Below, one piece after another: positions 23,176 to 48,832 of a stretch of 64,000 nucleotides of DNA. Position 1 is the first letter of the stretch. Each line of letters begins with the position of its first letter. Position numbers and translations under genes: made by a program. The stretch spans positions 12,897,834-12,961,833 of the forward strand of contig CM082579.2 in assembly GCA_040954595.2 (NCBI GenBank). The letters are read 5' to 3'. The notes under the pieces are model-generated. The model saw only the letters and a list, made by a program, of their open reading frames with translations, ran no database searches and was not told where the DNA came from. The stretch comes from Balanoglossus misakiensis (lineage: Eukaryota; Animalia; Hemichordata).

Positions 23176-23489
23176 CCCTACCAGACAAAAGTAATGGGAC
23201 TTATGTCGCGGGAATCACTAGTGATTTCAAGGTGTCAATTCACAGCAAACATCGTGTTTGCGTTTTATCTGTAGCGGGATTCACGAGTGTTTATGGATAC
23301 ACACGGAACGTGTAATTAGCTGAGTACACGAACTTGCGTCAATCGAGAGATAAGGCTGCAACATAACATATTAGATATAGCGCCACCTACGATAAAAGAA
23401 CAGTTATCCTGCTCTAAAATTAATTAATACGGTAGGATGCGATCTGTTATGGGTTGAGGAAATTATTTGTATTCAAACTGGTAATGTCT

Positions 23490-23908
23490 GTGAAGTCAGT
23501 GTGGAGAATTGGTGGTTTAATGTTGATCTTCGTGTTCGTGAAGTCAGTGTGAAGAATTGGCCGTTTTATGTTGATCTTCGTGTTTGTGAAGTCAGTGTGG
23601 AGAATGACTGTTTTACGTTGTTGCTACGAATTTGCGAAGTCAGTGTGAAGAATTGGCCGTTTTATGTTGATCTTCGTGTTTGTGAAGTCAGTGAGGAGAA
23701 TGACTGTTTTACGTTGTTGCTACGAATTTGCGAAGTCAGTGTGAAGAATTGGCCGTTTTATGTTGATCTTCGTGTTTGTGAAGTCAGTGTAGAGAATGAC
23801 TGTTTTACGTTGTTGCTACGAATTTGCGAAGTCAGTGTGAAGAATTGGCCGTTTTATGTTGATCTTCGTGTTTGTGAAGTCAGTGTGGAGAATGACCGTT
23901 TTATGCTA
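23490..23908. repeat. Subterminal minisatellite: 48-bp monomers alternating as a 96-bp dimer (~8.7 monomers)
   Basis: gaagtcagtg recurs every 48 bp from 23492. Confidence 0.92.
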
Positions 23909-25967
23909 CGTGTATCCAATTATGACAGGTCGCTCATGAGGTCGCAATCGTTTTCGTGTTTACTGGACGGTATAATGGGCGAGAGAAAGCCGAGTTGCAA
24001 ATACACGTAGGTATTGATGCGCATTCATTTGAAACACCATATATGAGCCCGCTGATCGCACCGTTCAAACAAACAACTACTCCATGAGGTAGGCTTTGTG
24101 GCGCTGCTGAATTACTTCCCGTTATGTACTGCGATGATTGGCGTACGTACCATAGTCAATCCAGTGAGACGGTCAGTTGACTGTGTGCAAATGAATAAAA
24201 GACGTACTGATGCACGGTCTATTACAATGATAGAAATGAACATTATACACCGGGCAAGTAAAACCTGACACTGGTCAAAATAAGGCGGATACGCTGTTAT
24301 CCAACTGTTGTTTCTCATCCCTCTTGAAAATTTAATCTCATTAAAATATATGGTCACCGATGCAAATTTACCTACAGTTACCATGGCAAATTGAGATCTA
24401 GCCAATCGGAGATTTTCAGTGGTGCCACACGCGAAAAAAAAGAGCGCCGCCATATGTTCTTTATAACACAAAAATAAGCCCTTTCAGCCATATATAGGCG
24501 TATGTAAATTGGAGGTGAGCCTAAAACCTTAGACTATACCACTAGTCGCTTGGTGATTTTTAAATCTCAATTTTTGTGTTTTCGGTGTTTTTTTGTCTTA
24601 ATAAATAATTGCAATACTTTTTACATGCATGCTTGCCTCGAGCGTGTTTCTAGTAGTGAGGTGAGTTTCGAATTTGGGACTGAGCTTGTGGTTTCGGGTA
24701 GCGTCGACCAGGCCTTCGCGTTCCTTGCCGACTCTCCGTAACAGTTACCCGATTCCAAGCGGGGTCAGTAATTTCAACAGCCACATTGCGCATGTTGACC
24801 AAGTTCGAGGCCACGCATCGTATAGGCAAACTACCCTGTTTTCTCATGCCCGATAAAGTCTGCGTTTTATCGGATAAAATCGTTAATATCGTCTTACTTC
24901 TAAGTTAGTCTAATATTAGAGTAGGTGATAGGAGCTTGCTCCGGTTTCCTTTGTCTTACTCGCAGAAAACCGTTAAATGAAAACATTTTCTAACGTACAC
25001 AACTTAAACTATAATTATCCGACAATGACTTCCAGTGCCACGAGCTGGTAGGCAAGTTTCAACACATTTTTTTCGCAGTAATTTTGGACATACGCTGTCA
25101 CCGGAATACTTCTCTCACCACCGAAAAAGCAACATACGTCGGTAAACGTTGAAACACAACGGTTTTGTAAATTATCGACAGAGTAATATTGTTCATGTGA
25201 AAATCCGCCTATAGAAATGTCGAAATGTGTTTATCTTGTAAAATTCTCATATAAATGATTTTTTATTGGTAATGTACCGGTATGCTTCAAACCCGACACC
25301 ATGAAACGAGAAGGCTTTGCCTCTCTAAACTGAATCGGGAGATCTTGAAATTACGCGGTTAGTGGATAGATACCTACGCATGGCAAGTGGCTAATCCTAC
25401 GTGACGACAATTGACTGTGCACTTCCACAAAAACAACTGCGTCAAATCTCCATGTCTGGTATTTTAGCAAGAGAGTGGGAGACATTGTCGGCTCAATCTG
25501 ATGAATGCAAATCATCAGGCCGTGTAACGTGTGAAACACACAGATCTGTGTGCAGGCCTATCTCGCTCTCGCCCACGGTCAGTTACATTTTTTTTGCACT
25601 GCTGGGGATAATTACCAAAGACTGTCCTCGTATTTTCTCTCATTTTTACTGACCATTTTGGCCCCTCTGCTATACAAATGTTTCATGTCTTGGACGTATT
25701 TTGTGTGTATGGGCGCGATCCTTCGAGACCGACGCAGTCATATGACTTTCGTTACGGGTCCTTTAACCAGAGAGAAACTTAACTTTATTTATTTCATGAC
25801 ATAATAAAGCTCATGGACCAGGTCCAGTCCATGCATTGATCAAAAAGGAAATATACGCAGAACTAGCGATATACATGAAACACTGAGTCCCTAACAAAAC
25901 TGTAACCAAGTGGCGATGCGATGTCTGAGAACACTAGCGCTTCCGTGAAACCCGTGTACCGGTACAA

Positions 25968-26290
25968 ACGGCAGGGTTCTGTCCGCCCCCCCCCCCCAAC
26001 CCGAAGTGGTGTCGAAAGGTATTATGCAAGGGAAATAATCGAACCCACTTCTCTAAATAGCTTGCTCACATTTACACTGTCTCTTTTTTCAAAAAGGCCT
26101 ACTATCGTATGTGAATCACCAAGACAGAAAATGTTAATCTCGTGCACTGGTTGTACACGGAAACAATCAAGTAATCGGTTGCCCATCAACAAACTTGTCA
26201 AAATTGTCAGTTTCAACAAAAGGCGGCACGCGTAAGACGGAGCGTTTATTTTGTTCGTAAATGCGGTCGTGTGAATGGTTGATGCGATCG
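25968..26290. repeat. Dispersed ~320-bp repeat, inverted copy at ~57525-57840
   Basis: cagggttctgtc...aacccgaagtggtgtcgaaag and ggcacgcgtaagacggagcgtttattttgttcgtaaatgcggtcgtg are both found reverse-complemented at 57.5-57.8 kb. Confidence 0.88.
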
Positions 26291-26654
26291 GCAACATAAT
26301 TACTGAATTAAGAAGAACGTGGCTTATATATGAGTATACCGTATATGCCCCAAAGTGAACTGAGAGCTCGGAAACATGTATCCCACTTGCTGGTTGAGTC
26401 TCAATAAATATCACGGAATATTTAATTCTCTCGGTCCCAGTCTTTCTATGAGTTGCTGTTCTCTTTGTTTGGTGCTTTGTTTGAGATAACTCGCGTGACT
26501 CCTAATTTAGACCCAGCATGATGATTTTTAATTCCCGATTGGTCCATGTTGCTGAAAATACCCACTTCGCTTTAATTCGTCGTGGTCCAACTACAATTTC
26601 AAGGATTGATGTCTGTACAACAGCTCTTGAGTCAGCGTAAAGTTGACCGGAATT

Positions 26655-26756
26655 TAGCCTGGTCCCATACCAGTGTGTTTTAGATATATAGAAATTCAGT
26701 GCGTTTGAAGCGTGAATTTCTATATATCTAAAACACATTGGTATGGGATCAGGCTA
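26655..26756. mobile_element. 102-bp hairpin MITE with TAG...CTA ends and 9-bp TSD (AcademH-like)
   Basis: 44-bp arms with 2 mismatches. TSD accggaatt (26646-54) and acctgaatt (26757-65). Confidence 0.85.
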
Positions 26757-29700
26757 ACCTGAATTAGGCCAAATAAAAAATTGTGTGCAAACAATCAGAC
26801 CCTGAATTTGTGGCCTTGAAAAATCCTGAGAGATCGTAAAAAAACAAATGCCATTACTGTTCGATGTTTATATTTGCGTAGGGCATACGCCATGCAATGA
26901 GTGACCTCTGTGCATTTTATCATATTGGTTACAAGTAAATAAACATGCTCTAGTGACGAGTTCAATGCTTGCGTGTTTACCTGATGTAGTGCGATCCATG
27001 ATCATTCTCAACCCGAAGTGTTAGCCTGAGTGTATTTTCCTAATAAGTTGACAAGATTGCATGTACCTGATCATAATCTGATGTACACTTCGTCGATGAT
27101 AACATGTTAATTAATATGATAAGCCGGTCAGAAGGTGTGAATCAAAATGATACAATTTTGCCCATAGACAAACCATTGGTGAAAAATGCTGAGTTATCAG
27201 TTTTCTTCTATTATTGACTAAATTCGTGGCTCTGTATTTCATCAACAAGCACAGTGACCCCTATATTTTATTACGGATTTTCATTATACATACAAAGGAG
27301 AATCCAAAAATCCACACAATAAAAAGAAGATAATATTTTCAATTTTACTGAACGTACATCCTCTTTTAACGTAGCAAATGCAAGCTGCTAGAAATGTGTA
27401 CAAATACGTGAAGTATACACCATCTTATCCACCAGTTCAATTTATGTCTATTATCGTCGCATTTGTAACTTGCTTGTCTACGAATTTAAACGTATGACCC
27501 CCCATTTGACAGACTGTTGGTAGACCGTTTAAGCGTATGAAAAAGATTTGACACTCGGTTCTTGTCATCGTAAGCCTTATTTTATAAATAAATAAATTGG
27601 TTACTATTGGGTTTCTAACCCGGCAGTGATGAAGGTAGAGAGCAGTCATCTCTCCCCCCCCCCCCCCTCGGTTCTCTAAAATAAATATGTGTGTAAATCG
27701 ACGTACATAGCCATATGCTCCTATAACCCAAGGAAATGAAGGATTTTGCATGAAGACTGTGGTGAAACGCACAGTTAAGTTCAAGTAATCAAAATATTTT
27801 GTGGCTCTATATACCGGTACAAGTCCCTGGACTGTGCTCAATGTCACCGCACCTAGTATTAGTCAAATATTAACTCACATGGAATATGTCATCTTAATCT
27901 TTCTTACACATGAACTTCAAGCGTACGAGTTACACAATCATGATTACTCTGGGTCAAGTACCTCTGTCAACATTGGCCTGATACCTTGTCTGCGTTTAGC
28001 CCGGGTTGCAGGTATGTGTGTGCCCGGCCTCATTGGCTAGCGTAACGTCCCACCGGGAACAAAGACTGCGTAGCTTCTAGATCTAGATGAACGCCTGTGT
28101 CTCCCGCGGCCGACTGATCGTCTACTGGTTTTAGTAATTGTTGTCCTAGCTTTGTGATGTGAGTGTGTCGTTGTACAAAAGGTGGAGAGAGCGTGGAGAG
28201 AGAACTGTTTTTCGAGGGAAAATTAAATACGTGTACCGGTAGTTTTACGTCTAATAAATAAATAATTAAATTATTCCAGTATAAGAACATTTCTAGTTCT
28301 TTATAGGCCCAAAGGCTTTCGACACGTGCAGGAATGCGATGGGAGCTCGCTTGTTCTCGACCTGTTTGCGAGAGAACATGGTCTGATAGAACTGAAACCA
28401 GATACCATTTGCGACCATACACAAAGTGGTCTTCTGGAGCACAGGTATGTTCATGTTAAATGATGAAATAGAAGGCGGGGGAGGCGGGAAACGAACTTCC
28501 TGCCAACCACGATAAATATAGAGGCCTCTATATGGCATGTACAGTTAGCACATTACTAGTCTACAGAGACACAGTCATGTTCACTGAAATCAGATCACAT
28601 ATACTCACAATTCCGCCTGATCACGGTCACTCCACACACACACTGTGGCCTGATCAATCCCACAGAACTATTTAAAGGCCGCAAGAAACAGACATTCCTA
28701 TACATATCCAACAAAACTTGATTGGTCTGACGTTTTTATATAAAACTTGAATCAAAATATCTTCAAATACTACCGACGTGCTCATTTGGCGTTGAACAAG
28801 TTTCTGTGCTTCAATAGTCTCGGCCATTCAGATTATCTGTCTAGCTTTTTAAATAAAATCAACTGTAATAAGTGGATGTTGAAGTTTCTCAAGGACGTTT
28901 CTCCCAGGCTGCCATATCTCGACACAAGAAGCGTCCTCGAGGACTAGCCCTGCGAACAGGTCTGTTTGTTCCCGGCGTTACACGGAAGCCTGAGAGCAGC
29001 ACATGATACAGCCTTGTATAACGAACTGAAACTCATTTCTTTTACAAAATTAACAAAAAAACACGGATTCCCAGGTTTATCTGTCCCATCGACACAAAAT
29101 GCAAAAACAAAAAAATCAAAATTAGTCGAACGTATTCCTGTTTTTGCAATCTACGCGCTGCTTGGCAAAGCACGGTACAGGCCGGGGGACCATAGGATGA
29201 TGATAATAATAAAAAAAATGTAAAACAAACAACAAAACAATGTGTCATTTCTTGCTGTTTGTCGATGTTGCAGATAACTGTAAAAAAAAACATAATCGTG
29301 GAAAACACGACCTAGGTAGCCCAACGTCACTACTGTCTTATATACAGGCAAGGGTGGAATCGACATGCCTTGATCTCGGCTCATGGGCCACCTTCAAGGC
29401 CCTGAAAAATCACCCCATTCACCAGCGAGCGATTAAATTATGCCACCATAGGCACTGAAATTTACCTCACTGACCTATTTGGGGTTTCACTTGATCTATT
29501 GACCTGCAAACGAGTGGAAAAACGTCGATTTCCAAGTCGTACCCAGTCAAATTCAATCACATTTCAACTTCACCACCGATGTTGCCGGCTATGTTATCAC
29601 TGCCTATTTAAATTGACCAATCGGGCGCCCTGTAAAGGCTGCCTCGGCCACCCGATTTACTGCTCAACTCGTACGAGTACGTGTAACTGCGTTCAAAATA

Positions 29701-32700
29701 ACGCAAAAAGAAGCAAAACCGTAAGAGTGATACAGATAAACGGATACTTCCCAACTCTTTGTCAGACAATCTGCCGTTTTACGTTAGAACGTACACTTCC
29801 GGGTATTTAATCAGGTGGCTGCGTTTTTGTTAATTCAGTTCAGTGCATCTATTACAGAGGAACTGTGTTTAGCAATAAGTATTGGTCAAAATACAAGCAT
29901 GCATGAAAAGTGAACCATTGTCCGAATTAATAATGAATAAAAAGTTTGATCACCAATGAATACTCAAGCTTGCGTAAAACGCGGACGAGATGACGCATGT
30001 TTTTGTAAAAGAAAACCTAAACATGAACTTAATAACCATTTTACGACACACATGTTATACAATAGTACCGTACACTACCCACATTACATGTAGTCACCAG
30101 AGGGTCCACTCTACGTCGCAAAACGCTGGCTGTTTTGCGACCTTTTACGACGTCCACCTCAAGTACGTGTAATCACCCGCACCGCTTGCAGTCACTAAAC
30201 GCCGTCAACCGTGTGCATGATACGTTTGTTTTAACATCAGACAAAGCAAAAGAAGTTGTTGCAGAAACTTAACTTTCTTAACAGAAAGCATAGCTAATGC
30301 AGTCAGTCAATAACAGAGTCGCAATCGACACGTTCTAATAGTGTACCCCGCCGATGCTAGTGTACATGCAGTTTTTCATTTTAAGGCCTATCGATCTCTG
30401 TAGAAGTCCCTCAAGCTGGCAAGACACTGTGGTCAACAAATCAAGGAGCGCATTGCTATAATCATGGCCGGAATAATTCATCGTCAATATAATCCACTAA
30501 TTAACTAATCCTGTCGGCAAACTGACTTCATTTACACTTCGCCACAAATTTACCTATAGGTGGCTCGAGAGATTCGAAACCAAGAACCACGGGGTGGGAA
30601 TGTATTCTTCTTTTGTATCAGCTTCATCACTTTATTCAGGATTCATAGACAAGTGACTTCAACAAATCTTCCAACGACGCGTTGGTTTCGTGTGCGACCA
30701 GTTCTGTTGTTGCAACACAAGCTTAACCAATGTGACTTTAGTAAAATATTAAGGTGAAGACTGGACAGGAACAGAAACTAGCGGTAAGGTATCCCGACAC
30801 CCTAACAATGCCTGCACAAAACACTTTTACGGTATACCGGTAAGAGTGAGTACGGTAAAATTTACTACCCCCGTTATCGCCCAGCGATTGTATAAATTAG
30901 CACGTTTAAATTTGAACATGATAAGTCGCAATTTAATTGAAATACAATTTCAATGCCGGTCGTAAGGTAACGTGGAAACCTACTTTTTTTTTTTGGATAG
31001 CATCAAATGAAACGTGATATTCACGTCGGGAAGTGAAACAAACAATAAAGAGTATCGGCATACTGGTATAACACCCAGACCGTAAAATCAAAGTACCCCA
31101 AACATCAAGTTTTAATAGTAGACTTCATAATTTCGCTCATATTGCATTTATATACAACTCGATAGAGATATTTTAAAATTTGCGTTGCCGACATCGCCGA
31201 CATCGGCAAAGCTTGCATCACCAACTCGCGTGAAAATTCAAAAACTACTCGGGTCGGTAACGACTTACACCAAGTTGAGTTTATACCAAGTATTGCACAG
31301 AGAAGTGAATACACAACCGTCTATAAGAACCATGTAAATTTTGACTGGTCGACGAATAACACGTATGAAACCGCTCTAAAGAAATATTGAAATTTAAAGC
31401 GAAATGTCGAATGAGTAAAGTTTACAAATCATTTTTCCCTATTCAGTGTATTAGTATTCCACACATGAAATCAAGGCATCTCCTCTCCGGAGTTATAGTA
31501 TTGTGGAAAAACATAGAATAATTTGTCATATGATGAAATAGATCAGACTAAAAGTAAACACTGAAATGGCGATGGAATACCTTTGCACTAGAACAGACTT
31601 GCCAAAAAAGAAAAAAGAAAACTTTTTTTACAAAACCCGGTTTTTGGACGCTTTGTCAAGCGACTTCCACCATGATTGTCAACCGTCGCTTCCATCATCA
31701 TTCTCCGTAACATAGACTAATGAGCCGGACTCCGGGCAATGAAGCAACCACAAATGTACAATTTTCTACAAAACGTTTTTGTAGGAGTGAGCAGATAAGA
31801 TTAAAATAACGGACATACCGGTAGTGTCATTTGGAGAAGCTGTCAGTAGTGGATTAACGGTCCTGTGTTTGCTGTATAAATAAACCAAGCTAATAATTGT
31901 ACTCTGTCCATTTATGGTGGCGATTTTTTTTTCCGATTTCCCCCAATTTATGAACTTGCAAAACGTTTAGGTGAAAATAACTTAGTCTCAATAAGGACTT
32001 TTTTGGTCGTTTTTTTTCAACTTAAAGTGCCGTTCGCATAAATCATTTGTTTTTTTTTGTGTTACGTTTTTGGCTTAGGTGTGCAACTTGAAGGAGTGTC
32101 ACTGAGCAACGCATGAACAGATTGTTGTGATGTTTGGCCTGAATACAATGTACATGTACTGTAAAACACTTTATTTTCGCGAGTTAAATTTTTCGTGAGT
32201 TTCACGAGTATTAATTTTCACGTTCTCTTATTTCATTCACTGCCTCGTTATCTTCAAAAAAATTACGCGACTTTTTATTTTCACGCTATTTTGGGTCGCG
32301 GAAATTTTTTGCTCGCGATCAAATTTCCAATCACGATATGAAAGAAATCTTATGCGAAAACCTTACAAAAGTGAATTTCAAAATTCCAATGGGAGGTATT
32401 TTCTCACAATATATAAAGCTTTCTATTGCCAGGATCAGACTGTCTTTTTTATTTACACTTTTTTGAGTTAAAAAACTTGAGGTGTATGTCAACCTTAGGC
32501 AAATTCTACCACAATAAGTGGCTTCTGCGAAAAAGACTTTTTGACCAAAAATAGCAACTGGTTCCCCGCAAAATAAAATAATGCAAATGTCACCAGAATT
32601 GAAATTGTATACCAAAGCAACGGACTAACAGTTTTAGAGAAAGACAATTGCGAATGTTGACAAATTGATGCTGGACAAACAGGTAATTTGATAAGCTTCA

Positions 32701-33297
32701 CATAGCTGGCAGCAGAACTGAAAAGGTCAAAAATTGTGACTTAGTTGTACCATTAATCAATGTAGATAGAATACTAAGTTTCCAAAAGCTATTGGATTTT
32801 AAAGATTCAGGTAGGCAAAGTTCAAGGTTTCATTAAAAATATTTATTTTAACAAAAAACAGTGAAGTAAATTTTAAAAACAAAAAAAAATACAAAAAACA
32901 TTAAACTGAAATGCAAATCAAATCTGTGTGTCTTCTCATGGCATGAACCGGAGACATCTGTTGGTTAAAAAAAAATAAAGTTACGAATATTGATGCATCT
33001 AGAACAGCTGTACAGCTGCATACATTAACATGTTGATCCAACTAATTTATTCATCGGGAACGTAATGGAAATCAAATTCCATGCAGGAAGTTTCTCTTTA
33101 AGCTGAAAACCCGATTTCTACTGTACATTTAGATTGTTTTTTCACTATCTCATTGATTTTGTATTTTAGATAAAATGTGTGCCCAGCAAACCAAGTTAAA
33201 AATCAAAGGAAAGTGTTCTCATGGAGTCCAGGTGTCATACTCCGAGAAGCCCAGTGGCAAGAGACAAATGCTCGTTTCGACATTCTTTTTATGCCCA

Positions 33298-36200
33298 TCA
33301 TATTGCCCGGAAAGAAAACCTAATATAGACTAATTCCAGTTCACTTAAACTGACCACACCCCCCCCCCCCCCACACACACACACACTGGGTGCATGGATG
33401 CGACACATTTTGTGCAATATCTGATACACGGTTTTTGTCTAAGCCTGAAATATATACTCAAAAAGGAGTCTGTAAGTAGTATGTAAACTCTCTACTTACT
33501 CAGCATGCTTTGACGATATCGCTCTCTCTCCGAACTCCCTCGCGTTAACCTCCATTATTGTAATAGTTTGTTGGAGCTCTTGGCATTTATTGTCCTCCAA
33601 CGGCTCCGCCAAGTATTTAACTTCCTGTTATAAAACAATAATGACAATATGTGAGTGATACTCAATCTTGCATAACAAAAAGTGTTAATGATCTACCACT
33701 AACATGCTCCTTGCATTTAAATTATATTCCCTTTCACTATCATCTCTTTTGTAGTATTCCATGTTCAGTCACTGGATCCTTTAAAACAAGACATGATATA
33801 AACTGAGTGTTCGTTTTGTTTTTATTGCAAGTTAATAACAAAGGTATATAATTGCCAGGTAAAATAACAACGAGAAGTTCCAAAAAAACTCACATTCAGT
33901 GCATCCTGCGTAAGCGTCGCAGCTAGCATGAGGCACCCCTCCGCTATGTGGTGGGGCTGGTATTGCTGCCGTACATTCATTGACAGCAAGGTTATGTCTG
34001 CCAGATACTACAACGAAATGAAAAATTAATCAAGTCATGTATACAGACAATTATGCCAACCTACTAACATCTAAGACCGAAAATAAGATTAAAAAGTTTG
34101 ATGTTGTTGGAAGTTACAGTTACAAAGCTCAAGTTTAGATGAATCTTACATTAAGTGTGTATACTTTTCAAGATTGCTTGTTTTATTTTGACTAACTTTA
34201 TTAATAAAGTGATGTGTCACTTTTTTATCATCTGTCACATCAGACTTAAATGTTTTCAATCCAAATGTCTTACCTGTGCCACTTCTCTTGTTGTCCGTTT
34301 TATTTTGGGATTTAATTCCCATAGACACCCAAGGAAGGTTGTAACAGGAACTGTTGTTAATTTGAAATTTAGTAATTTCATAATTAACAGTTCCATGTTA
34401 CAAACCTCCCTTGGGGTAAAGGCATCCGCAGTATAGTCAGAAAATGTGGATGCTACAAAAACTGGTACTTCCAGAAGTTTGCTGTTATTGAAAGAAAGAA
34501 AATACCTTAGCATTATTTAAAAATGTGTGTATAGGGATAAACTGTGTTTACGCCATCTTGAAGATTTGCAGTGCATTATGGGTCAATTGAGTTCCGGTAC
34601 GGGGGGGGGGGTAACGTCTAAAACCTATCCAATTTTCCAGCTGTTTTGTCAGATTTTCTTCAAGTAACGTTAGTAGTAGTAGTAGTTACATGAATAAAAT
34701 CTAACTAAACTGCTGGAAAATGAATAGGTTGTAGACGCTACTTCCCCCCCCCCCCGTACCGGAACTCATTTGACCCATAATGCACTGCAAATCTTCAAGA
34801 TGGCGTAAACACAGTTTATCCCTATACATTATTGTAAACAAAAAAGGCGGGTATTGATTTGTCTGGTGGGGTGCTTCAACTTGGCCAATCCACCATGGGT
34901 GTATCCCCTGCCCTATTTTCACTGTTGACTTGTTGACAACCATTTTGGTGAGATTTTTGTCTACTTACTAATGAAGATAATCACCTATGTAGACTATGTA
35001 ATGCATGTAAAAAGGGTGCTGAGCTATGGCAGGTTACAAAATAAGCTTTCTGTTGATTTCAAATCATGGATTTAGTTTGAATTTTATTTTGTTGTAGTAA
35101 TTCAACTGTTTAGGTCATAGAAAAAGACCGAATGTTGATGATTTAAGATGAAACTAACTGCCAAGGTACACAATCTTACTGTTACACAACAAAACCAAAC
35201 ACACACAATTAATGAAAGTAAATCACTACAGACTGATGCCTTACCTAGCGGTAAACAGGCTTGCCGCAGCAACCAATTGCTTGAGTTCCACATGGAACGC
35301 CCGGCACCTTGTTATGAAGCTGTCGAAGTACCATATAGCTGTGTGTACTGTCTCAGGATCAAAATTCAGTTCTGTTGCCACGGCATACATCCAGTCAACG
35401 CAGACTGCTCTGTTATTAAGGTCCCTGGATGTCAATTGCGGGTACATGCTGTACCACACCGGCACACGTTCCTGGTGGAAGAAACAATACCAGTTACACA
35501 CCATGAATCTTTGTAAACAGTTAAATCCCTTGTAGAGAACCCCCCCCCCCCAAATCACAATGGCAGTTCACAGTTCACTTCAATTCAAAGCTTGAATATT
35601 TCGAATGCAGTCCAACTCCAAAACCATTCCGCAAGCTACTGAAGTGTAACTAACTCATGGAGTGTCAAAACGTAACCCCTTATTCCTAGTGTTTAACCCA
35701 CGTTCGATAACCATTAAGCTGTGCATGTTGAAAATCACAACAGGTGTGTTTCAACACAGATTGTTTATTACATTCAGACTGTCTACTAGAAGTATGTATA
35801 CTACAAAGACTGTTTATTTCTTGTTTATTCTGTCTTGGATTTATTATCAGGTGCGAGTAAAACGAAAAGCTCGCACTAAATTAGAACTGGATTAGATCTC
35901 ACACATCGACGTATCTCGTGTTCTCATTTGGGCCATTCCGTCTCTCTCCATGTCGAACCTATCCCCAAGTGTACGCCGCACAGTACATGTTTACAACCGA
36001 CTAGTTGTTGCACTGCTCTAATACTAGATTTTATTGCACAATAGTGCAATCAAACAGACGGGAAATCCTCAACAAAGTGAATGGAAACTGATTGTGCATT
36101 CCGTTTGTCGTAATCTAGATGGATAATGTAAACATTAAATGGTTGCTTTAAACCCCATGACTGTGGTCGAGTATAAGTAAGCTTTTTTTTCATATTCGTT

Positions 36201-37455
36201 CTCACACTCTAAACTATCCGACCGTTTTCGTTTTTCGCTGGGTTTCATAAAGGGGGAAGCAAAAACACTGTACAAACACAACCGCACTAAACGACATCAT
36301 TTAAAAACCTTTCGGCCCTATTGAATAGGACTAATTCGAGCCTAATCAATCGGGCGGGAAAATGATCAAAGTCGGCCCTCCCTTTGATATGGACGGTTAA
36401 AAAATCGGTTGGCACCGTCACAAAAAGCCTATTTGGTAAAATGTAACTTGGCGGAATAAGACAAATAGGGATTGTGTATTTGGGGATAAATAAGTGCTGT
36501 TCTCGATAAAACCACTCACTTCACGGAAGGGAAATCGTCATTCAAGTATAAAATATAAAGGATATCACGACCGGACTTCAGCAAAACATTGAACAATATC
36601 AGTCAAACACACGCCACAGTGTTATAAAAAGCATTTTTCAGTCGTCCGTTCTCTTAGGGGATGCCAAAAGAAGTCCCGAATCCCTTCTTCAGTTTACAAC
36701 ACGAATCAAAACTAACTTTTCACGTTTTCTCCGAATACTTTCCTCATAAAAGGAATGCGGTAAATGGTCGACTTACCTCTGTTAACAGAAGGTTCTCCAG
36801 CACACTTTGACGATAATCTGTGTAAATTGTGAGATAAGACCATATTTTGTTATCGAGATGTCGTTCTAATAAGCGAACAAAGATTCCCCGGAGACAACCT
36901 GAAGATATTCACCCTAAAAGCACTAATTTTGATATTTTTTGTTGATGAAGCCTAATTCCCTAATTCTTATTGAGCATTGCGTTGTTTCGAGTTAAGAAAT
37001 GGTCAAACTTTTTTCACTAACTAATTGTCAAAAAGACTACAGAAAGAATCTCTTTTGTGTGGCCGAAAATAAGCTGATTAAGTGCTCCCTTCTAATTGAT
37101 TTTGAGAAACAATACTCGCATGTGGATAAATTTGCGACCGTTCTCATACGAACTCAAAGACTAACAAATCACGGGCGAAACACCACAAACACAAGAAAAT
37201 AGATGCGGTAAATGCGGTAGATCTCGCCATTAGAAATTCCATGCTGTCTATTTTAGTACTTCCGATAGAAAAACAAAGAAATAATATTCAGCGATCATAA
37301 AGTTCCTCATAATTTCTGCAACACTCTAAACGTCATGAAAAGCATTCTATTTTGCCCGCATAAGTATATCTATCTGTACACTAGTCTCACTCTTCATATA
37401 AACTCGTCGTAGAACGAAGAAGTTTCGACTTACCGTTGCTCAAAAAATGGTCCAT
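33298..37455 (-). CDS. Divergent cyclin (A/B-like cyclin box), 7 exons, ~279 aa
   Basis: Exons 37455-37434, 36898-36777, 35471-35245, 34481-34274, 34007-33894, 33624-33500, 33319-33298 have GT-AG borders and consistent phases, totalling 840 nt. Motifs: NRAVCVDWM, ETVHTAIWYFDSF, KQLVAAASLFTASKLLE, YTADAFTPREVCNMELLIMKLLNF, YLADITL, AISSKH. The first two exons are less certain. Confidence 0.82.
34528..34828. mobile_element. ~300-bp MITE in a cyclin intron
   Basis: ~120-bp inverted arms tatagggataaactgtgtttacgccatcttgaag... / ...cttcaagatggcgtaaacacagtttatccctata, with TA(TA) at both ends. Confidence 0.88.
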
Positions 37456-37992
37456 CGTTGTGAAATACGTCAGTCGAAAAAATAGAAAAATACAGGAAGG
37501 AAACTAAGGAACTAGGGAAACTTGGCGAAATGTCGAAGGGGTGGTTTTTACTGCAAGCAGCTACTGAAACTCTGACCAGTATCGCACGGTTATATACCCT
37601 GTGGTAGAGAGACGCGGCGCCGAGGCTACACCAAGGTGTAAATGCATCAGCCAATAATTTTGGATCCCGATTGTTGCAACGTTTATTTCGGTTGATATCT
37701 CCATATCAGTGTTAATCCCATAGACTTTATTTCGGCTTTGGCGAGTTGTTTTGTTTACTTTCCCACGCAAAACTAAAAAATCCAATGATTGAAAGTCCAG
37801 AGTATACAGAATATTGAAAGCACTTTTTCACTGAAAAGCGACCGAAAATGCACATTGGTGTCTTCTATGATGCCCTTCCTCTATAGTTGACGGTTTAATG
37901 ATTAATGACAACAACTTTTACACCGTTAGAGATCGGAATACTTTTTTACAAAGCTGGGACACAGCAACTGTTCATTTGGTAACATTTATGGC

Positions 37993-40900
37993 ATGAAGGC
38001 GCGACATTGCACATTTATACGATATCGGATATTTATCGTCTAGTATCGACACTAGAAAATATCGCTTATATCCTCCAGTATCGTCTAATTTATTTCACTG
38101 GACCTGTGCCGACCATGGCATGTTCACCAAGAAAAATATCGTCTAGTATCGTCTAATTTGAAAGTTGTTGTTTAAGTACAGTCTACTTTAACGTTTTAGA
38201 CGATACTAGACTCTAGTATCGATAGTATCGATACTATCGGATATTTTTGAGGTCCGACATAGTCAGGAAGCAGGCAAATTGTTGTTAAAGTACAGTCTAA
38301 TTTAACGTTTTTAGACGATACTAGACTCTAGTATCGATAGTATCGATACTATCGGATATTTTTTAGGTCCGACATAGTCGGGAAGCAGGCAAAGTTGTTG
38401 TTAAAGTACAGTCTACTTTAACGTTTTAGACGATACTAGACTCTAGTATCGATAGTATCGATACTATCGGATATTTTTGAGGTCTGACATAGTCGGGAAG
38501 CAGGCGAAGTTGTTGTTAAAGCACAGTATCGTCTAATTTCTTTGACTAGACACCCTTGTCGCTCATTACATGTAAACCATCATTGGACAAATGTCGTATG
38601 CTCACCAAGAAAAATATCCGATACTATCGATACTATCGATACTAGAGTCTAGTATCGTCTAATTTTTTTGACTAGACACCCTTGTCGCCCATTACATGTA
38701 AACCATCATCGGACAAATGTCGTATGCTCACCAAGAAAAATATCCGATACTATCGATACTATCGATACTAGAGTCTAGTATCGTCTAATTTCTTTGACTA
38801 GACACCCTTGTCGCCCATTACATGTAAACCATCATTGGACAAATGTCGTATGCTCACCAAGAAAAATATCCGATACTATCGATACTATCGATACTAGAGT
38901 CTAGTATCGTCTAATTTCTTTGACTAGACACCCTTGTCGCCCATTACATGTAAACCATCATTGGACAAATGTCGTATGCTCACCAAGAAAAATATCCGAT
39001 ACTATCGATACTATCGATACTAGAGTCTAGTATCGTCTAATTTTTTTGACTAGACACCCTTGTCGCCCATTACATGTAAACCATCATTGGACACATGTGG
39101 CAAAGTTGTTGTTAAAGTAAAGTCTAGTTTAACGTTTTAGACGATACTAGACTCGATACTAGTATCGATACTATCGATACTATCGGATATTTTTGAGGTC
39201 CGACATAGTCGGGAAGCAGGCAAAGTTGTTGTTAAAGCACAGTATCGTCTAATTTCTTTGACTAGACACCCTTGTCGCCCATTACATGTAAACCATCATT
39301 GGACAAATGTCGTATGCTCACCAAGAAAAATATCCGATACTATCGATACTATCGATACTAGAGTCTAGTATCGTCTAATTTTTTTGACTAGACATCCTTG
39401 TCGCCCATTACATGTAAACCATCAGTGGACACATGTGGCAAAGTTGTTGTTAAAGTAAAGTCCAGTTTAACGTTTTAGACGATACTAGACTCTAGTATCG
39501 ATAGTATCGATACTATCGGATATTTTTGAGGTCCGACATAGTCGGGAAGCAGGCAAAGTTGTTGTTAAAGTACAGTCTAGTTTAACGTTTTAGACGATAC
39601 TAGACTCTAGTATCGATAGTATCGATACTATCGGATATTTTTGAGGTCTGACATAGTCGGGAAGCAGGCAAAGTTGTTGTTAAAGTACAGTCTAGTTTAA
39701 CGTTTTAGACGATACTAGACTCTAGTATCGATAGTATCGATACTATCGGATATTTTTGAGGTCCGACATAGTCGGGAAGCAGGCAAAGTTGTTGTTAAAG
39801 TACAGTCTAGTTTAACGTTTTAGACGATACTAGACTCTAGTATCGATAGTATCGATACTATCGGATATTTTTGAGGTCCGACATAGTCGGGAGGCAGGCA
39901 AAGTTGTTGTTAAAGTAAAGTCTAGTTTAACGTTTTAGACGATACTAGACTCTAGTATCGATACTATCGGATATTTTTGAGGTCCGACATAGTCGGGAAG
40001 CAGGCAAAATTGTTGTTAAAGTAAAGTCTAGTTTAACGTTTTAGACGATACTAGACTCTAGTATCGATAGTATCGATACTATCGGATATTTTTGAGGTCT
40101 GACATAGTCGGGAAGCAGGCAAAGTTGTTGTTAAAGTACAGTCTAGTTTAACGTTTTAGACGATACTACACTCTAGTATCGATAGTATCGATACTATCGG
40201 ATATTTTTGAGGTCCGACATAGTCGGGAAGCAGGCAAAGTTGTTGTTAAAGTACAGTCTAGTTTAACGTTTTAGACGATACTAGACTCTAGTATCGATAG
40301 TATCGATACTATCGGATATTTTTGAGGTCTGACATAGTCGGGAAGCAGGCAAAGTTGTTGTTAAAGTACAGTCTAGTTTAACGTTTTAGACGATACTAGA
40401 CTCTAGTATCGATAGTATCGATACTATCGGATATTTTTGAGGTCCGACATAGTCGGGAAGCAGGCAAAGTTGTTGTTAAAGTACAGTCTAGTTTAACGTT
40501 TTAGACGATACTAGACTCTAGTATCGATAGTATCGATACTATCGGATATTTTTGAGGTCCGACATAGTCGGGAGGCAGGCAAAGTTGTTGTTAAAGTAAA
40601 GTCTAGTTTAACGTTTTAGACGATACTAGACTCTAGTATCGATAGTATCGATACTATCGGATATTTTTGAGGTCCGACATAGTCGGGAAGCAGGCAAAAT
40701 TGTTGTTAAAGTAAAGTCTAGTTTAACGTTTTAGACGATACTAGACTCTAGTATCGATAGTATCGATACTATCGGATATTTTTGAGGTCTGACATAGTCG
40801 GGAAGCAGGCAAAGTTGTTGTTAAAGTACAGTCTAGTTTAACGTTTTAGACGATACTACACTCTAGTATCGATAGTATCGATACTATCGGATATTTTTGA

Positions 40901-41032
40901 GGTCCGACTAAGGTCCGACATAGTCGGGAAGTAGGCAAAGTTGTTGTTAAAGTACAGTCTAGTTTAATGTTTTAGACGATACTAGACGATAAATATCCGA
41001 TATCGTATAAATGTGCAATGTCGCGCTGTCCT
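37993..41032. mobile_element. 3-kb non-autonomous foldback element filled with 115-bp and 126-bp tandem arrays
   Basis: 50-bp perfect inverted repeat gcgcgacattgcacatttatacgatatcggatatttatcgtctagtatcg starting at 37999 and ending at 41026. Flanking direct repeat catttatggc at 37983-92 and 41033-42. Empty-site paralogues at 50411 and 55844. Confidence 0.9.
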
Positions 41033-42639
41033 CATTTATGGCGGTTGAGCAACTTTTGATTTGCTAAAAGAGGGTAGTTGGAGTCAAATATCGATCAAAT
41101 AATAGGGCGGGATGGTGCCCGACGTTCTGATCCAAGCCCCACTCAAACTTGGAAAGAATTAGAAAATATTATCGAATTTATCCTTTAAAATTTGCTAGTC
41201 TGTCTCATGGTCCGCCAACCTTCCCACTCTGATATAGAAGTTAAAATCGGATAATGCCTATGCAAATGTCGCGATATACTTCGTTTACACAAAAAGTGCA
41301 TATCCTTTTATTTCCTTCCGATCAAGACTTGTCCCCGGTCCATTCGCTTACAAGTATTATGTCATCACGAAACAAATGTCTCGCAACGAAAGTCCCACGA
41401 GATCGCGTAGTCCCAGACATAAACGCAAATACCCACCATGACATGGAAACATTTTTCAAGCAATTGGGTAAAAGTAAGAGAAAAAGGGTTTGACTTTACT
41501 TTAAAATCTATAATGGGACAGCGACTAATGGGCTCGTACCCTGTAAAAAATTCAATAGGCATTATCAACACGGACCAGTGATTAGCAGACGTCACGTGAC
41601 TTCAGAATAGGTGGTCGTTTGTACAAGTGGCATGCCAATACGCGTGGTTTTTACGCAATAAGGGACAATGATCGTCTTCCGGTAACCACTTAATGAAAGA
41701 GTAAATTTTGAACTTCCACGATAGCACTTTAGTCCTCTTCCCCTGGAAGCGTGTAGATTTCATGCAATTTCCTCTGTGGTAACTTCTAACTTTCGAAACA
41801 ATGTTTTAAAATTTGTCTTAGCCTGGCTAATTTTAAACCAAAATTAACATACCCGGGAAAGACTGATTTGGTCTTTCGGGCTGTTTGATTCAACATCCTG
41901 CCGACTGTGGGAATTCAAAGCCACCATTCAAATTGGACATGTGGGCGACATCGATTCTGACACCTTTCGTAGGTGTGACTCTTATCCATTAACAATTGCT
42001 TATCTATAAGGCATTAGACATTCCTAACATTCCACGTAAACTTTGACAACAGGTTTTATTAAATGCTAGAGACTGACTATTCATTTTGGCGAGTTTTTCT
42101 CTCTAGTGTCTACAAGTAGGATATAAAGTGTGTATCACTATATATCCACATGTAGAATTATATAAACGGTGTCTTGTATCAAACATAATTAATAGTAAAA
42201 GGGCAGTGAGAGAGAGAGAGACTTTGTCCCTTTCAGTGGCCGATCACAATATGGCCATTCACGAGGCCGCATTTACGTAGAAAGCAATGTCTTGGCCTTA
42301 CGTGTGCAGCATTTTGTTGAAACTGTCATTTTGACAATGTGTTGAATACGAATACGATGACGATAGCTTCATTGTTTCATGTACCGGTCCTTGCAATTAA
42401 GTAAAGTCCCAGCATTTCTAATGTTATAGACCACTTCCATTAAATAGTTGCATCCATACGGATTATGGAAAGAGAAACCCTTTTAAACATTTGATCAAGA
42501 TTTGGGGTAGATGTGTTGATTATCTTAATTTACACTTACAAGGGAGGACACCTGTATGCGCTGGGAAGGTAAACATAAAACTTTGGTGCGACTGTCCCAG
42601 GGTCTTAAAAACCGCCACGGGCAAGAGAACGTCACACCA

Positions 42640-43263
42640 GCGTACCGCGACGGAAAACACAATTTCGAGTTTGTTTCAAATAAAAAGTGGACCCATCTTC
42701 GCATATACATACAGGCTAAAATGCGAAACAACTTCCAAAGCACTAAAACTTTTGTCCAATGAATTCCACTGTTTTCAATTATTTTACCGCTTGCCTAAAA
42801 TTATTAAGTTCGTGAATCCCGCGAGAATTACTAAGCGGTCCAAGTCAGGTTCACGCTTCAAATGCAGGCACAGATCTGGAGACACACAATTCCCGTGGCG
42901 TCGACATCATTTTTAAATGCCAGAATTTCAGTTTTTGCCATAAGACGCAGTTTGATGTGTAGGTGAACTTGATCTAACGGGGAATCGTAGATTGTTAACG
43001 TGTTTGGGGAATCAATGAACTTTTAACTGTTCAGACAATAAAGTCATTCTACAAAGCTTGCGCATGCATGGATATACCACCGTAAGATCGCTGACGTACG
43101 GTACAACCAAAGCGTTTTTGATCAAACAGCCTAAATAGTATACCAGAATACGTAAACGTCTTACTCATTAACATTTTCCCGATCAACCACCCCACGTAAA
43201 GGAAACGATCTTGGGAATCCCGTAGGAGTCACTATCGCATCCGGGCTACTTGTCACTGAGTTC
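42640..43263. repeat. ~620-bp module, inverted copy of part of the 1.9-kb tandem unit
   Basis: Reverse complement of ~59737-60360, e.g. gcatccgggctacttgtcactgagttca / tgaactcagtgacaagtagcccggatgc. Confidence 0.92.
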
Positions 43264-43916
43264 ACTAATATGCATTATTTCTTACTTTTCGTAAACATTA
43301 ATATAGTTTTAAAAAGTGACACCTCTGTCAACGTTGCCAAAAAAAAACACAAAATCATCACATTCACAGGCAACTTTCTAGCAAGACGAAACAGCTTTGA
43401 AGGTACTGTCCGGATTAAAGGCAGTATTTGACAGTTGCAAACACCGAAACAGGCTTTAAAATGCTATTTCATTCACAAATGATCATGGCTGTTCTGTTGC
43501 GTTACAGAAATAGTCTACGGTTCGACACAATTTACCTGGGTATTGAACTTCATGATACTGCTCATTTCGTGGGAGCGTTTAAATAAAACAGATTGCGAAC
43601 AAAACTGCAATAGTTCAAGATATGTACAGATCAACTTAATCTGACAACGAACTCTGACTTTTAAAACTTACAAAAGGGATGTCAGACACAAACATGCCAT
43701 TGCGGCGACATGCGTCTCCTAACCTAATATGTTTGATTAGGATTTTAGCACCTTTCCGTCTTACACACCATTCAGAATGTTTATTCGTTGTTTAGATCCC
43801 ACGGGTCTTGGTGCCACGTCTCACCTTTGACATTAAAAACTATACATGCCAACATGTATTTAAAGCCACTGTTGGTTGCGACACGGAATCAAACCGTAGA
43901 AAGCATCGTAGCAATC

Positions 43917-46649
43917 ATGTCGACAGATAACACAAGTTGGTATACCACGGCGAGACACCGCACGAAACGTAAGTTTACACTACATTTACAATATAATTTG
44001 TCTTTTCTTGTGATAGGAAAAAAATCGCACTTAGAAGTACTATAGAACGAAGAAAGATAATCACAAACGTAATTCATTTGTATTTCAGAACCGAGTTTTG
44101 CTCTTGTCAAGTTTCTTAGCGATGAGACAGTGGCAGTCATGCCAAAGTCGAAGATTACCGCCGGATCTCTCCGGGTTGGTAACGAAGTGTCTGTTCGGTG
44201 GGACGACAAAAAAGAGTACAAGGCCGTCGTGTTGGTGACTGGAGGTAATGTACACTTTAATGTTGTTGAGTCAACTATAATTTTGGGCATAATGTATATA
44301 CATGTAGTAAAAGAAAGTAAGTTTGAAACGATATTTGCCACAAGTACCGCGAAACTGGTAAAATTCAATACACATGATTAACTATAAAGTGACCGTGCCT
44401 GTGCTAAGGGGTGAACTTTACATCTTGCAGCCCTGAAATAGATGAAAAACTGTCGGTCCGCATTTCAATTTGCTTCGGACTTTTGTCAAAAAATTTACTA
44501 GTTACTATTTTGTCAATCCTGTCTTGAAATGCCATAGAAAAGAAAAAGAACTTGCGGGAGAAAGGCTCGTGGCCATGGGCTACTCGTGCGACTTCATCGG
44601 TGAAAGTCGGAATGGCGACGATTATTTTTCTTTTTTTGGTTTTTAAGAGTTTTGTTGAGGTCGACGAACGAAGCTATTATTGGTTTACCATATTCCAGTT
44701 TTGATATATCTCCACAAAAAATTCATTTCAGTGCTTCCGGTCTCACGAAATTCCGAGAAGCGCAGTACATGAACACAAAATCAGAAAAAGATAGTTGGAA
44801 AAATGTCTGATAGGTCCAAACTACAGTAGCACATGTTCAGCTTCCGAGCCATTCCAAAATGCACAACAGCGACGAAGAAATCGCTCGGAGCAAATTTCTA
44901 CACTCCATTCCACAATTTCCTCGCCAAATCGGTTCCGGAACTTATTCCGCGTTTTCCTATCAAAGGATGTCGCTGTATTTGTCGATTTACTAGTATTCAA
45001 CCGCAATCAGTGAAAATTGGGGGCCGAAACGACCTGTTCCCCATCATGTTCTGTACAAGTGTGTTATGATGTAAAATCGTGCATGAAAAAGGGGCTATGT
45101 ATGTCATTAACACTAGGGGTCATTTGCCAGATACCCGATTTTGACACAAATTTTACGATAATCTTAAAATGTCCAGTACCCAACAAACGTACTTTGCGCT
45201 ATGCTGGCTCATGGAAAAAATGGATGACCACTGTGTACAATCTGGTATTTTTGTACAACGCGGTGACAAGTAAATTGTCCTTGTAAGGCAAACTTTAGAT
45301 ACTAGAACATAATTATCCGACAAAAGACACATTTATTGTGAATGGATGTTGTTATTGACTCATTTCAACTACAAGTAAACAAAATGTCCAAACATTTGAT
45401 AAGCGATGATAAACAAATCCACGTGGTATGCTTATTGGCAGGCGTAAACAGTCTCGCAAAGTCACATTGTGTTTAACGAGACTTCATGATGCCTTTCATA
45501 ATCACATCTCGCAAATCACGTGCAATTCGATACGTCATGACGGTACCTTTTAATTTAATTAATATAATCGTACATGAAGTAGCTCGTACAGCAATTATCA
45601 GTTACAATTAATAATCTTTCGGTAAATACTGACTCGTTCATGCTGTTGGGCTCATAGTGCTTGCACAAACGGAACACATATTTACAACTTTTGTTTCCCT
45701 GCTTATAGAAGAAAAGAAAAAGTTGGTTGACCACCAAGATCAATTGGAAAAAGAATATTTTGGGAAACAGCCATCAACAAGCCTGCTGCCATCACCAAGA
45801 AAGAAACAAGACACAAGGAAGAGATTGAAATTTCCTAAAGAAGCCCCCGTTAAGGTAATAAAGCTGATGTTTGTAGACACGTTGTTACGTGGGGTGTCTT
45901 TATTTGAAGGAAATTTGTCTTAACACAGCGCACAGGTCATTGGAAGTGTCGGGAAAGGATCTCGTATGGTTCAATTCATTCACTTTGTCATGCAAAGCGG
46001 ATTTCATTAAGTCTTATAAACGAATTGCGATTATGAGTGTATTAAATTTGTTCTTATTTATCAACAGAAACCAATAAACTTGATGGAGGGTAGTCCACCC
46101 TCGGATGTGGATCTGGAGTCTAGCCACCGGGCAACACCAGTGAGCCATGTGGGCAGCCCGGTGGTTTTAAATGTGCGGGGACAATGTTGCAGTAACAGGC
46201 GGCTGGAAGAAAAATTAGATAAGCTAATAAATTCTGTAGACAATATGTCCGCCATTTTAAGCAATTTTTTAGCAAGTGTGTCAGGCAACAGACAAATCAA
46301 CCCAACCTCGCCGACCTGCGTTGAGGTTGAGGAAAGCGTCGTTGACGATCAGGCAAATCATCAATATTTGCCTGATGAAGTCATTTTTGACGCTCACAAA
46401 AAATCAGGGGCTGATAGCAGGCGTTTTGCCACAAGGCTTAACAGACTCCTCTTCAAAGAAGAGGAGCGGAAAATAAGCAATGTCAGTGGGACTAGAGGGA
46501 AAGTCAAACTCGATGAAAGTAGGGTAGACTATATAAAACGACTGGTTTTTAAATTTTACCCGTGCGCGACATCTGACAAGATTAGCCAATGGGCACACTG
46601 CATCAGAGGCATTGATGAATCAAACAGGGCCCTGAACAGAAAAAAATAA
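43917..46649 (+). CDS. BEN-domain protein, 4 exons, ~311 aa
   Basis: Exons 43917-43968, 44089-44244, 45709-45854, 46068-46649 are GT-AG and in frame, totalling 936 nt. N-terminal beta-rich module (FALVKFLSDETVAVMP..VSVRW..YKAVV), short coiled coil, and C-terminal FATRLNRLLFKEEER..SNVSG..KLDESRVDYIK..W..CIRGIDESNR resembling BEN. Confidence 0.82.
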
Positions 46650-47104
46650 ATATAGTCTATCCTACTTTTTCGGGTTTTACTTTTCCTCGGTCTTACTGTT
46701 ATTACTTATTTTCACTCGTATATTGTTATGTCTTGTCCAGTAAGGCCCCACAAATAATTGTGTTTCTTTGATGCTTTTTTTCTTTATTTTCTTTTTTCGT
46801 TTTCTAAATTATGTATTGTATTAACACTTTTCAAGACATTTCCTTTTTAAAATTTTAATTAGTGATTAAATAAATTTTGTAAGTTCCACCAACACAGTTC
46901 TCCTGTTTGTGTGTAAATTGTATGTGACGAAAGCAAACAAGTAGACATGATTTAAAAAGATTATTATTTTATTATGAAAACAAAAGCCACACCATAGACA
47001 AAACCACATGGAAGTAAAAACTAACTCGGCAATTTACAAAAAAAAATTAAGCTTATAAGAACTGAAAACGAAAAATGTTGGTCAGGGGACATACGTCAGC
47101 TTCT

Positions 47105-48145: not shown

Positions 48146-48568
48146 TTAAAAAACTGAATTATTTGAATTGAGAATATCAAAAATGGCGAATATTGAACTA
48201 CATGTGTACAATATGAACTATAATCATACAAAGTAACATGCCACGTCTGTACTTCCACTATTATTAGCATGGATATTCTGCAAGCGACACATGGGACATA
48301 GGGCTGCAGTGGAGATAGGAATTTGTAAGTTTTCGTTTTCAAAGCTTAATGTTTTAATGCAGAATGATTCCTTTTTAATTCATCAGAATTTACTCTGTGC
48401 GTAATACAGTTTAACCACTATCGGGTTGTATTCGAGTGATCCTGTGAAAACACCTAAAGGGTTATGAAAGCTCTGCTAATTTTCACATTTCTCAAATACC
48501 CATTAACAAATCCTGACCTGAATCTCGTTCATACGTGCTCGCATTGGTGAAATAGCGCAGCCAGACAA

Positions 48569-48609
48569 TTGGCGCGAAAAGGCTCATGGGAGCTTCTGAC
48601 GTGACGTCA
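48569..48609 (-). promoter_or_regulatory. Candidate transposase promoter with an E2F-like site and a CRE
   Basis: TTTTCGCGCCAA (minus strand, 48569-80) and TGACGTCA (48602-09), ~430-460 bp upstream of the transposase ORF. Motif match only. Confidence 0.35.
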
Positions 48610-48832
48610 TTAACGATAAATGGAAGCGCAATCCTCCAGCTTGTGCGGCTATTCAAATTATCGTCTACCGGTACTTAATTAAGATTTAAGAAAGCAACTA
48701 TTTTAGCAATAATCGTAATCAATGTTTGTGCGCCAACAAAATGGTTTATTGTTGTGCTGAAAGATGCTGAAAAAATTGAGTTTTCATCGCTTTCCACTTT
48801 CCTTTCCGAAGTTACATTTGTACCGGAGGCAG

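Follow-up and report, generated by a model that had tools for sequence, protein, structure and literature searches.

A stretch of 64,000 nt of the Balanoglossus misakiensis genome (GenBank assembly GCA_040954595.2, contig CM082579.2, positions 12,897,834 to 12,961,833 of the forward strand; hereafter the window) contains a giant DNA transposon of 40,477 bp that carries a predicted intron-bearing cyclin gene. Our preferred reading, which we hold tentatively and rate at a little under an even chance, is that this gene encodes a 5′-truncated, strongly diverged derivative of cyclin A that would be kept as working cargo, raising or prolonging host cyclin-dependent kinase (CDK) activity in S/G2 for the copy gain of the element. 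The features on which this reading rests are collected in Table 1.

An initial reading of the window, made from the sequence only, had proposed that seven exons splice into an uninterrupted protein of ∼279 aa. We rebuilt this predicted gene exactly: the seven minus-strand exons, all of them GT/AG-ended, splice to 840 nt, corresponding to 279 aa and a stop, with intron phases 1, 0, 2, 0, 0 and 2. The two landmarks of the earlier reading were also recovered in the spliced translation, with NRAVC in the place of the MRAIL patch beginning at residue 68 and ASKLLE in the place of ASKxEE at residue 123. The weakest exon is the last one, since its pyrimidine tract is poor and other acceptors are available at 33444 and 33385, while read-through of the exon-6 donor would lead to an immediate stop and a protein of 273 aa. 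In its favour, exon 7 completes the tail motif K[YH]xxxx[FY]xx[VI], a slightly looser form of which is present in 55 of the 76 reference cyclins.

These 76 cyclin A and B proteins, with the query left out, were used to build a cyclin profile, and 1000 shuffles served as a control. The first cyclin fold, in which exon 2 forms the N-terminal helix, scored 79.1 bits over residues 30-166. The second scored 21.4 bits over residues 183-230, and the best shuffle reached 9.9 bits. The alignment with the references runs on as far as the A(I/V)xxK tail, which is conserved. The earlier claim that both folds are present stood by our own profile. Pfam Cyclin_N matched exons 3 and 4, and Pfam Cyclin_C gave no match on single exons 4-6 at E ≤ 0.1; as judged from its profile score, the second fold is present, if very divergent. 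When compared with solved structures, exon 3 scored 27 bits against cyclin A2, 15 against E1, 14 against B1 and 13.5 against the herpesvirus V-cyclin, and cyclin A2 was again preferred with exon 4. By these scores, cyclin A appears to be the closest cyclin type.

No close homologue turned up. The best match found with a single-exon query among 1.84 billion representatives had an E value of 1.6e-6, and no relatives of exon 3 were found at E ≤ 1e-3 among longer proteins, in metagenome contigs or in viral contigs. A match to P0007 (FG-GAP repeat) was discarded as a chance hit, and an AlphaFold model of a single exon was uninformative (pLDDT, the model's confidence score, of 55). In a 39-row tree, built from cyclin rows other than cyclin D, E or O with references gathered with a profile containing exon 3, the query had an end branch of 8.87 and at most 28% identity, and its placement with beetle cyclin-A-like rows is unreliable; we rejected this kinship as likely long-branch attraction combined with search bias. 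In beetles there is a further ‘cyclin-A-like’ protein of 360-390 aa (P0006, P0057-P0075), with shorter N-termini of 136-153 aa in the aligned rows and an SR(T/S)IL patch in two of them; these proteins form an independent divergent cyclin A lineage. Regarding gene structure, the inner exons of the query, at 227, 208, 114 and 125 nt, would resemble in size the CCNA2 coding exons of 224, 208, 114 and 134 nt. Two cyclin A models, one gastropod and one anemone, end at the same residue, 2-3 aa off the last intron site of the query, and the intron site at ASK is where one fragment stops. When animal cyclin A loci with introns were sought, the matches among 20 loci were mostly intronless.

Cyclins contact their CDK partners and RxL-bearing proteins through residues that include those corresponding to R69, W75, D98, Q113, K125 and E154 of the query and to the Met and Glu positions of the patch. 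The six former residues align with residues conserved in the reference cyclins, and the protein is predicted to retain CDK1/2 binding because K125, E154, Arg69/Asp98 and Trp75/Gln113 are kept. The hydrophobic patch of cyclin A is not matched, since NRAVC stands in the place of MRAIL; Arg and Trp are retained. In the alignment, the patch Met is replaced by Asn68, the patch Glu by Ala78, and FEE by LLE. The replacements at the patch Met and Glu would weaken RxL docking, and p21/p27-type inhibitors would consequently bind less well. The RxL patch is described as the p27 site (PMC6170502).

The second distinguishing feature of the protein is its short N-terminus. Only 67 aa precede the patch, compared with 163-243 aa in nine of the ten named animal cyclin A rows; the tenth, a Nematostella ‘predicted protein’ of 299 aa with 72 aa before the patch, is probably an incomplete model. 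A motif resembling a destruction box (D-box) is present in seven of these ten rows, and neither R..L nor KEN occurs anywhere in the 279-aa protein. Just upstream of the coding sequence lies a TATA box followed by an initiator-like site, the only such pair in the element (Markov expectation of 0.002 per 300 nt, for a pattern picked after the site was seen). The leader from the initiator to the ATG would be 110 nt long and free of upstream ATG, an in-frame stop is located 17 codons upstream of the ATG, and no donor-like sites were found between exon 1 and 42.5 kb. An acceptor-like AG at 37503 is in frame and might accept an exon lying further upstream. A TATA box and initiator at this distance above the ATG argue against additional 5′ exons, and the possibility raised at the outset that such exons might supply a D-box found no indication in the promoter pair, the upstream stop or the search for donors. 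The description of the protein as compact and devoid of a D-box was thus upheld, and the predicted protein has, by comparison with the references, lost the cyclin A N-terminus with its D-box.

Four inverted pairs enclose the cyclin gene, and the outermost marks the insertion, with a terminal inverted repeat (TIR) motif that occurs once per strand in the window. The element lies in a 130-bp satellite. Comparison of the reconstructed empty site with the satellite unit gave a gapless alignment when a single TA was kept (score 235) and a 2-nt gap when two were kept (score 224). Because the empty site is gapless with a single TA only, we consider this a real insertion with a TA duplication, which is described as typical of IS630/Tc1/mariner (ITm) elements (10.1101/656579). 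The transposon-borne position of the cyclin gene is therefore confirmed by the TIRs, the target duplication and the clean empty site. The inner inverted pair formed by the internal repeat and its counterpart was tried as element ends and rejected, as it has no convincing target-site duplication and a partial extra copy exists.

Table 1. Coordinates of the element, its genes and associated features in the window (numbering of the window; strand in the third column)
Feature	Position	Strand	Remarks
Giant TIR DNA element, CCC...GGG ends	23176..63652	.	40,477 bp; outermost inverted pair enclosing the cyclin gene
Left TIR, 25 bp	23176..23200	+	TA before it at 23174-23175
Right TIR	63628..63652	-	24/25 identical to left TIR; TA after it at 63653-63654
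130-bp satellite, left flank (target)	21646..23175	+	
130-bp satellite, right flank	63653..64000	+	resumes in register
Internal repeat	25963..26297	+	inverted relative to 57520-57847, 83%; partial copy at 42255-42345
Cyclin exon 7	33319-33298	-	22 nt, stop codon; least certain exon
Cyclin exon 6	33624-33500	-	125 nt; last part of second fold, AISSKH tail
Cyclin exon 5	34007-33894	-	114 nt; second fold (own cyclin A/B profile)
Cyclin exon 4	34481-34274	-	208 nt; KLLE, helices 4-5, beginning of second fold; Pfam Cyclin_N 2.6e-4
Fold-back miniature inverted-repeat transposable element (MITE) in cyclin intron 3	34528..34828	.	missing from other copies (contig joint 34533-34838, both deep runs)
Cyclin exon 3	35471-35245	-	227 nt; NRAVC patch, helices 1-3; Pfam Cyclin_N 6.9e-11
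Cyclin exon 2	36898-36777	-	122 nt; N-terminal helix of cyclin box and ABBA-like LTIYTD
Cyclin exon 1	37455-37434	-	22 nt coding, carries ATG
TATA box (37596) and TCAGT initiator-like site (A at 37565)	37563..37596	-	31 nt apart
Cyclin upstream module	37522..37992	-	paralogous to 55286-55853 and partly to 50230-50420 of the same element
Nested non-autonomous element	37993..41032	.	50-bp perfect TIRs, 10-bp target duplication, 115/126-bp arrays
BEN-domain gene with three or more exons (44089-44244, 45709-45854, 46068-46650)	44089..46650	+	open to stop; Pfam BEN E=0.0013
Tc1-type transposase, helix-turn-helix (HTH) and DD34E	47105..48118	-	337 aa, intact; without TIRs of its own

Inside the element, the intact DD34E transposase is 32-47% identical to its nearest relatives. 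A search for TIRs belonging to this gene alone was unsuccessful, the best local TA-flanked pair among 84,732 matching at only 15 of 20 positions. No other transposase was found in the element among 143 open reading frames (ORFs) and six frames of part of it, using profiles and tblastn; the segments 23176-38000 and 52001-59901 were scanned as ORFs of at least 62 aa and with our own profiles. In particular, Transposase_21 was absent from the 143 ORFs, from the six frames of 41030-52002 and 62300-63654, and from tblastn with an EnSpm remnant located outside the element, a search that short spliced remnants could escape. Since no nearer TIRs and no other transposase were found inside, we regard the DD34E protein as the candidate mover, and infer that the element would be mobilised by its own transposase. 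The adjacent BEN-domain gene has a match that falls below the Pfam curated cut-off; our model covers three exons to the stop, and its 5′ end was not found. This gene and the transposase gene are convergent, both intact, and separated by an AT-rich gap of 450 bp. No viral genes were found in the element, and searches of viral contigs returned neither a match to the TIRs nor a relative of the transposase or the BEN gene. A giant element of Tc1 type is the likely reading of these data, an EnSpm-like shell being a conceivable alternative.

The interior of the element is being rearranged. A 1.9-kb unit is repeated in ∼2.4 tandem copies at 57946-62548, and 640 bp of it recur inverted at 42627-43264; an 843-bp duplicate is found at 50047/55480. 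The module at ∼55850 that is paralogous to the cyclin upstream region shows the empty site of the nested element, whose 10-bp target duplication is, we presume, Mutator-like. Downstream of that module, a possible small spliced gene (55329-55250 and 54424-54320, minus strand) comprises a 27-codon first exon followed by a strong donor and would encode ∼62 aa by eye. Contigs of both deep sequencing runs described below join 41205 to 26102; this joint may reflect homology and not a circle, as 41100-41210 resembles by eye a diverged copy of the 25970-26100 repeat. An interior pieced together in this way from nested insertions and from duplications in direct and inverted orientation speaks for a reading in which the cyclin block is an independent duplicated segment or nested mobile unit, and the DD34E gene is likewise nested in an old non-autonomous EnSpm-like shell; read depth, moreover, varies along the gene and is low over exon 2. 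Such an arrangement nevertheless strikes us as decidedly unlikely, because no separate ends were found around the cyclin or the transposase, tblastn with the outside remnants and Pfam revealed no EnSpm-, Sola- or RecQ-like remnants inside the element, and three intact genes are held by one young, clean insertion.

We examined other copies of the cyclin in three DNA sequencing runs of one sample, two of which, the deep runs X1 and X2, hold the cyclin gene. Read contigs were compared over 24.5-44 kb and on exon 3. Contigs bridged the insertions of this copy at three joints. Two of them, 30965-32378 (X2 depth 204.9) and 34533-34838 (X2 depth 207.4), occurred in X1 as well as in X2, and the third, 25527-29236 (X2 depth 205), in X2 alone, depth being distinct from copy number. 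Because the three joints are nearly equal in depth, these results suggest that near-identical copies carry the cyclin together with the element interior and lack the insertions of the present copy.

The same sample contained cyclin copies ∼85% identical to the query, with a synonymous divergence of 0.24-0.5, so that the cyclin is not single-copy there. Selection was estimated on exon 3 only, with an 80% likeness filter and with variants near contig ends left unlisted. Out of 35 variant rows, none listing an indel, one intronic row was dropped, and the 34 exonic variants comprised 19 synonymous and 15 non-synonymous changes and no stops, 20 of them being located at third codon positions. The resulting ratio of non-synonymous to synonymous changes per site (pN/pS) was 0.20 (P=5e-6; 36 synonymous and 141 non-synonymous sites, 20% synonymous changes expected), well below the value near 1 that would have counted against the initial reading. 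Four contigs phased by depth, a phasing that is itself inferred, gave pN/pS values of 0.17, 0.19, 0.33 and 0.57, the last two based on 9 and 7 changes. When changes were classified by hand, those shared by at least two contigs (6 synonymous and 6 non-synonymous) gave 0.26 (P=0.02) and private changes 0.15. The NRAVC codons had no listed variants, which does not amount to conservation, as no more than 31 nt separate these codons from the ends of the diverged contigs in which they are covered. At the level of exon 3, purifying selection among the cyclin copies of the sample is supported.

In the main rival reading, the cyclin is a passenger. The host lineage would possess an expanded set of divergent, short paralogues of cyclin A that serve the host, for instance in the germline, and one of them would have been picked up recently by the element and not yet have decayed. 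Several copies with ∼85% identity exist. The ratio of X2 to X1 depth was ∼0.4-0.65 for the diverged cyclin contigs and ∼2.9 for the near-identical contig (35205-35500), and the diverged copies may hence sit in a different genomic setting; library type or a difference in copy number may also lie behind these ratios. In addition, the beetle proteins, with their shorter N-termini and altered patches, illustrate that divergent host paralogues arise. We regard this explanation as doubtful, though it deserves serious attention: the equal-depth joints tie the cyclin to the element interior in other copies, the upstream module of the cyclin is paralogous to other modules of the element, pointing to long residence there, and a host-type homologue closer than the best match reported above was missing from the searches with the single-exon query.

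Several observations weigh against the cyclin being working cargo that activates CDKs. If the diverged copies are host genes, as they may be, the selection measured on them does not have to be selection on the cargo. The 3-kb nested element of this copy lies ∼400 bp above the TATA box of the cyclin. CCC ends combined with a BEN gene may also be features of animal EnSpm elements, so that the DD34E protein is a putative mobiliser. CDK activation may have been lost, given the change of FEE to LLE, the long branch in the tree and the low identity. Finally, residues 30-35 (LTIYTD) fit the ABBA motif that binds Cdc20, with a chance rate of 10%, and may preserve a Cdc20 contact.

Another function that would still serve the element is that of a decoy. 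The protein would bind CDKs, CDK inhibitors or Cdc20 but fail to activate in the normal way, and a cycle slowed or stalled by it would give a 40-kb transpososome time to act or alter the choice of repair pathway. Retention of the CDK-contact residues with alteration of the acidic FEE and of the RxL patch would fit such a role, as would an ABBA-like motif in a protein without a D-box. Cyclin A that is both stable and active has toxic effects at mitotic exit, and the Sleeping Beauty transposase is reported to slow G1, both of which count for a decoy. We find it rather improbable, since the ABBA-like match has a chance rate of 10%, opens with Leu in the place of the Phe shared by all animal references and overlaps with the helix at the N-terminus, and since an activator would be expected to keep both folds and the tail motif, as this protein does.

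A more specific form of the preferred reading, in which a giant Tc1-type family tamed a cyclin A of its host and uses it, free of degrons and resistant to inhibitors, as an activator of CDKs that steers germline cells into S/G2 for copy gain, is possible but, taken as a whole, on the unlikely side. According to the preferred reading itself, the 3′ part of a host cyclin A gene with its six introns would have been captured as genomic DNA, and an element-internal module would have supplied a new first exon and core promoter. The DD34E transposase would move the element, and the encoded protein would bind CDK1/2 and be bound less well by p21/p27-type inhibitors in the manner predicted above. Its expression in the germline would raise or prolong CDK activity in S/G2, and excision would be favoured in replicated cells, where the gap could be refilled from the sister chromatid, resulting in copy gain. 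A fully stable cyclin A blocks mitotic exit, which makes an attenuated or tightly timed protein likelier than a constitutive driver.

Outside the element, the window is dense in transposons (4813-6894, 8112-10589, 14176-15742, 1958-3499 and 18429-19108, all on the minus strand). RecQ-like DEAD fragments, an ORF with DUF7869 and EnSpm-like Transposase_21 remnants were recognised there; we take the DUF7869 ORF to be Sola-like, and presumably a DIRS-like ORF and fragments of long interspersed nuclear elements (LINEs) are present as well. In the window at large, within as well as outside the element, short TIR or fold-back elements resembling MITEs are located at 11560-12553, 7619-7973, 16244-16846, 51022-51691 and 48832-48903.

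Cut-and-paste elements gain copies only by moving in replicated or replicating cells, and how they time their moves is a long-standing question. An element with its own constrained cyclin would make host cell-cycle manipulation by a transposon directly testable through one gene. The closest known counterpart of the gene is animal cyclin A (CCNA; PF00134 and PF02984), to which it is related by the best PDB matches of exons 3 and 4 and by the alignment of the N-terminal helix, the folds and the tail motif. It differs from animal cyclin A in lacking ∼130-170 aa of N-terminus with the D-box/KEN signals, in its NRAVC and LLE motifs, in its ∼30% identity, and in being multi-copy and located in a transposon.

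The carrier shares with Tc1 (DD34E) elements of the IS630/Tc1/mariner group an HTH and DD34E transposase, a TA duplication and short TIRs. Unlike compact single-gene Tc1 elements of ∼2 kb (curated bivalve TcMar elements are given an average of 1,935 bp; PMC10294476), it spans 40.5 kb and holds at least three genes and intact spliced cargo. That a Tc1-type transposase occurs in a natural element of 40 kb, ∼20 times the usual size, bears on the cargo limits of the family. Giant DNA transposons and TIR elements bearing host-type accessory genes are on record, among them the TET/JBP fungal elements, the 16-20-kb Chondrus En/Spm elements, Pack-MULEs and Teratorn, and the accessory genes described in these sources act on chromatin or silencing and not on the cell-cycle engine (PMC12730594, PMC6431247). 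Neither article uses the word ‘cyclin’ in its main text (PMC6431247, PMC12730594), and in a literature search that extended to few subscription journals, and to neither Repbase Reports nor supplements, no animal DNA transposon was found to be described as encoding a cyclin. In contrast to those elements, the cargo here is a cell-cycle cyclin, and viral genes were not found.

The sequence-only reading had suggested a possible resistance to degradation, a push towards S phase and a benefit to the element; all three are conjectural, and the ABBA-like motif is a caveat on the first. The comparison with viral cyclins drawn by that reading holds in part. Like the gammaherpesvirus v-cyclins (ORF72 of Kaposi's sarcoma-associated herpesvirus, KSHV, and the V-cyclin of herpesvirus saimiri, HVS, 1BU2/1JOW), the predicted protein is compact, has no destruction box and belongs to a parasitic carrier, which is the extent of the resemblance. 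The KSHV v-cyclin is described as a cyclin D orthologue that prefers CDK6, has no destruction box, resists CDK inhibitors and conserves the hydrophobic patch (PMC2636798). The element gene, on the other hand, is cyclin-A-like, intron-bearing and altered at the patch, and exon 3 prefers cyclin A2 to the V-cyclin by the scores given above. A cyclin A origin set against the cyclin D orthology of KSHV makes the likeness one of analogy, and the gene is an analogue, not a homologue, of the viral ones. If the more specific form of our reading is true, the element would carry a transposon counterpart of the viral cyclins, evolved independently from a different cyclin class.

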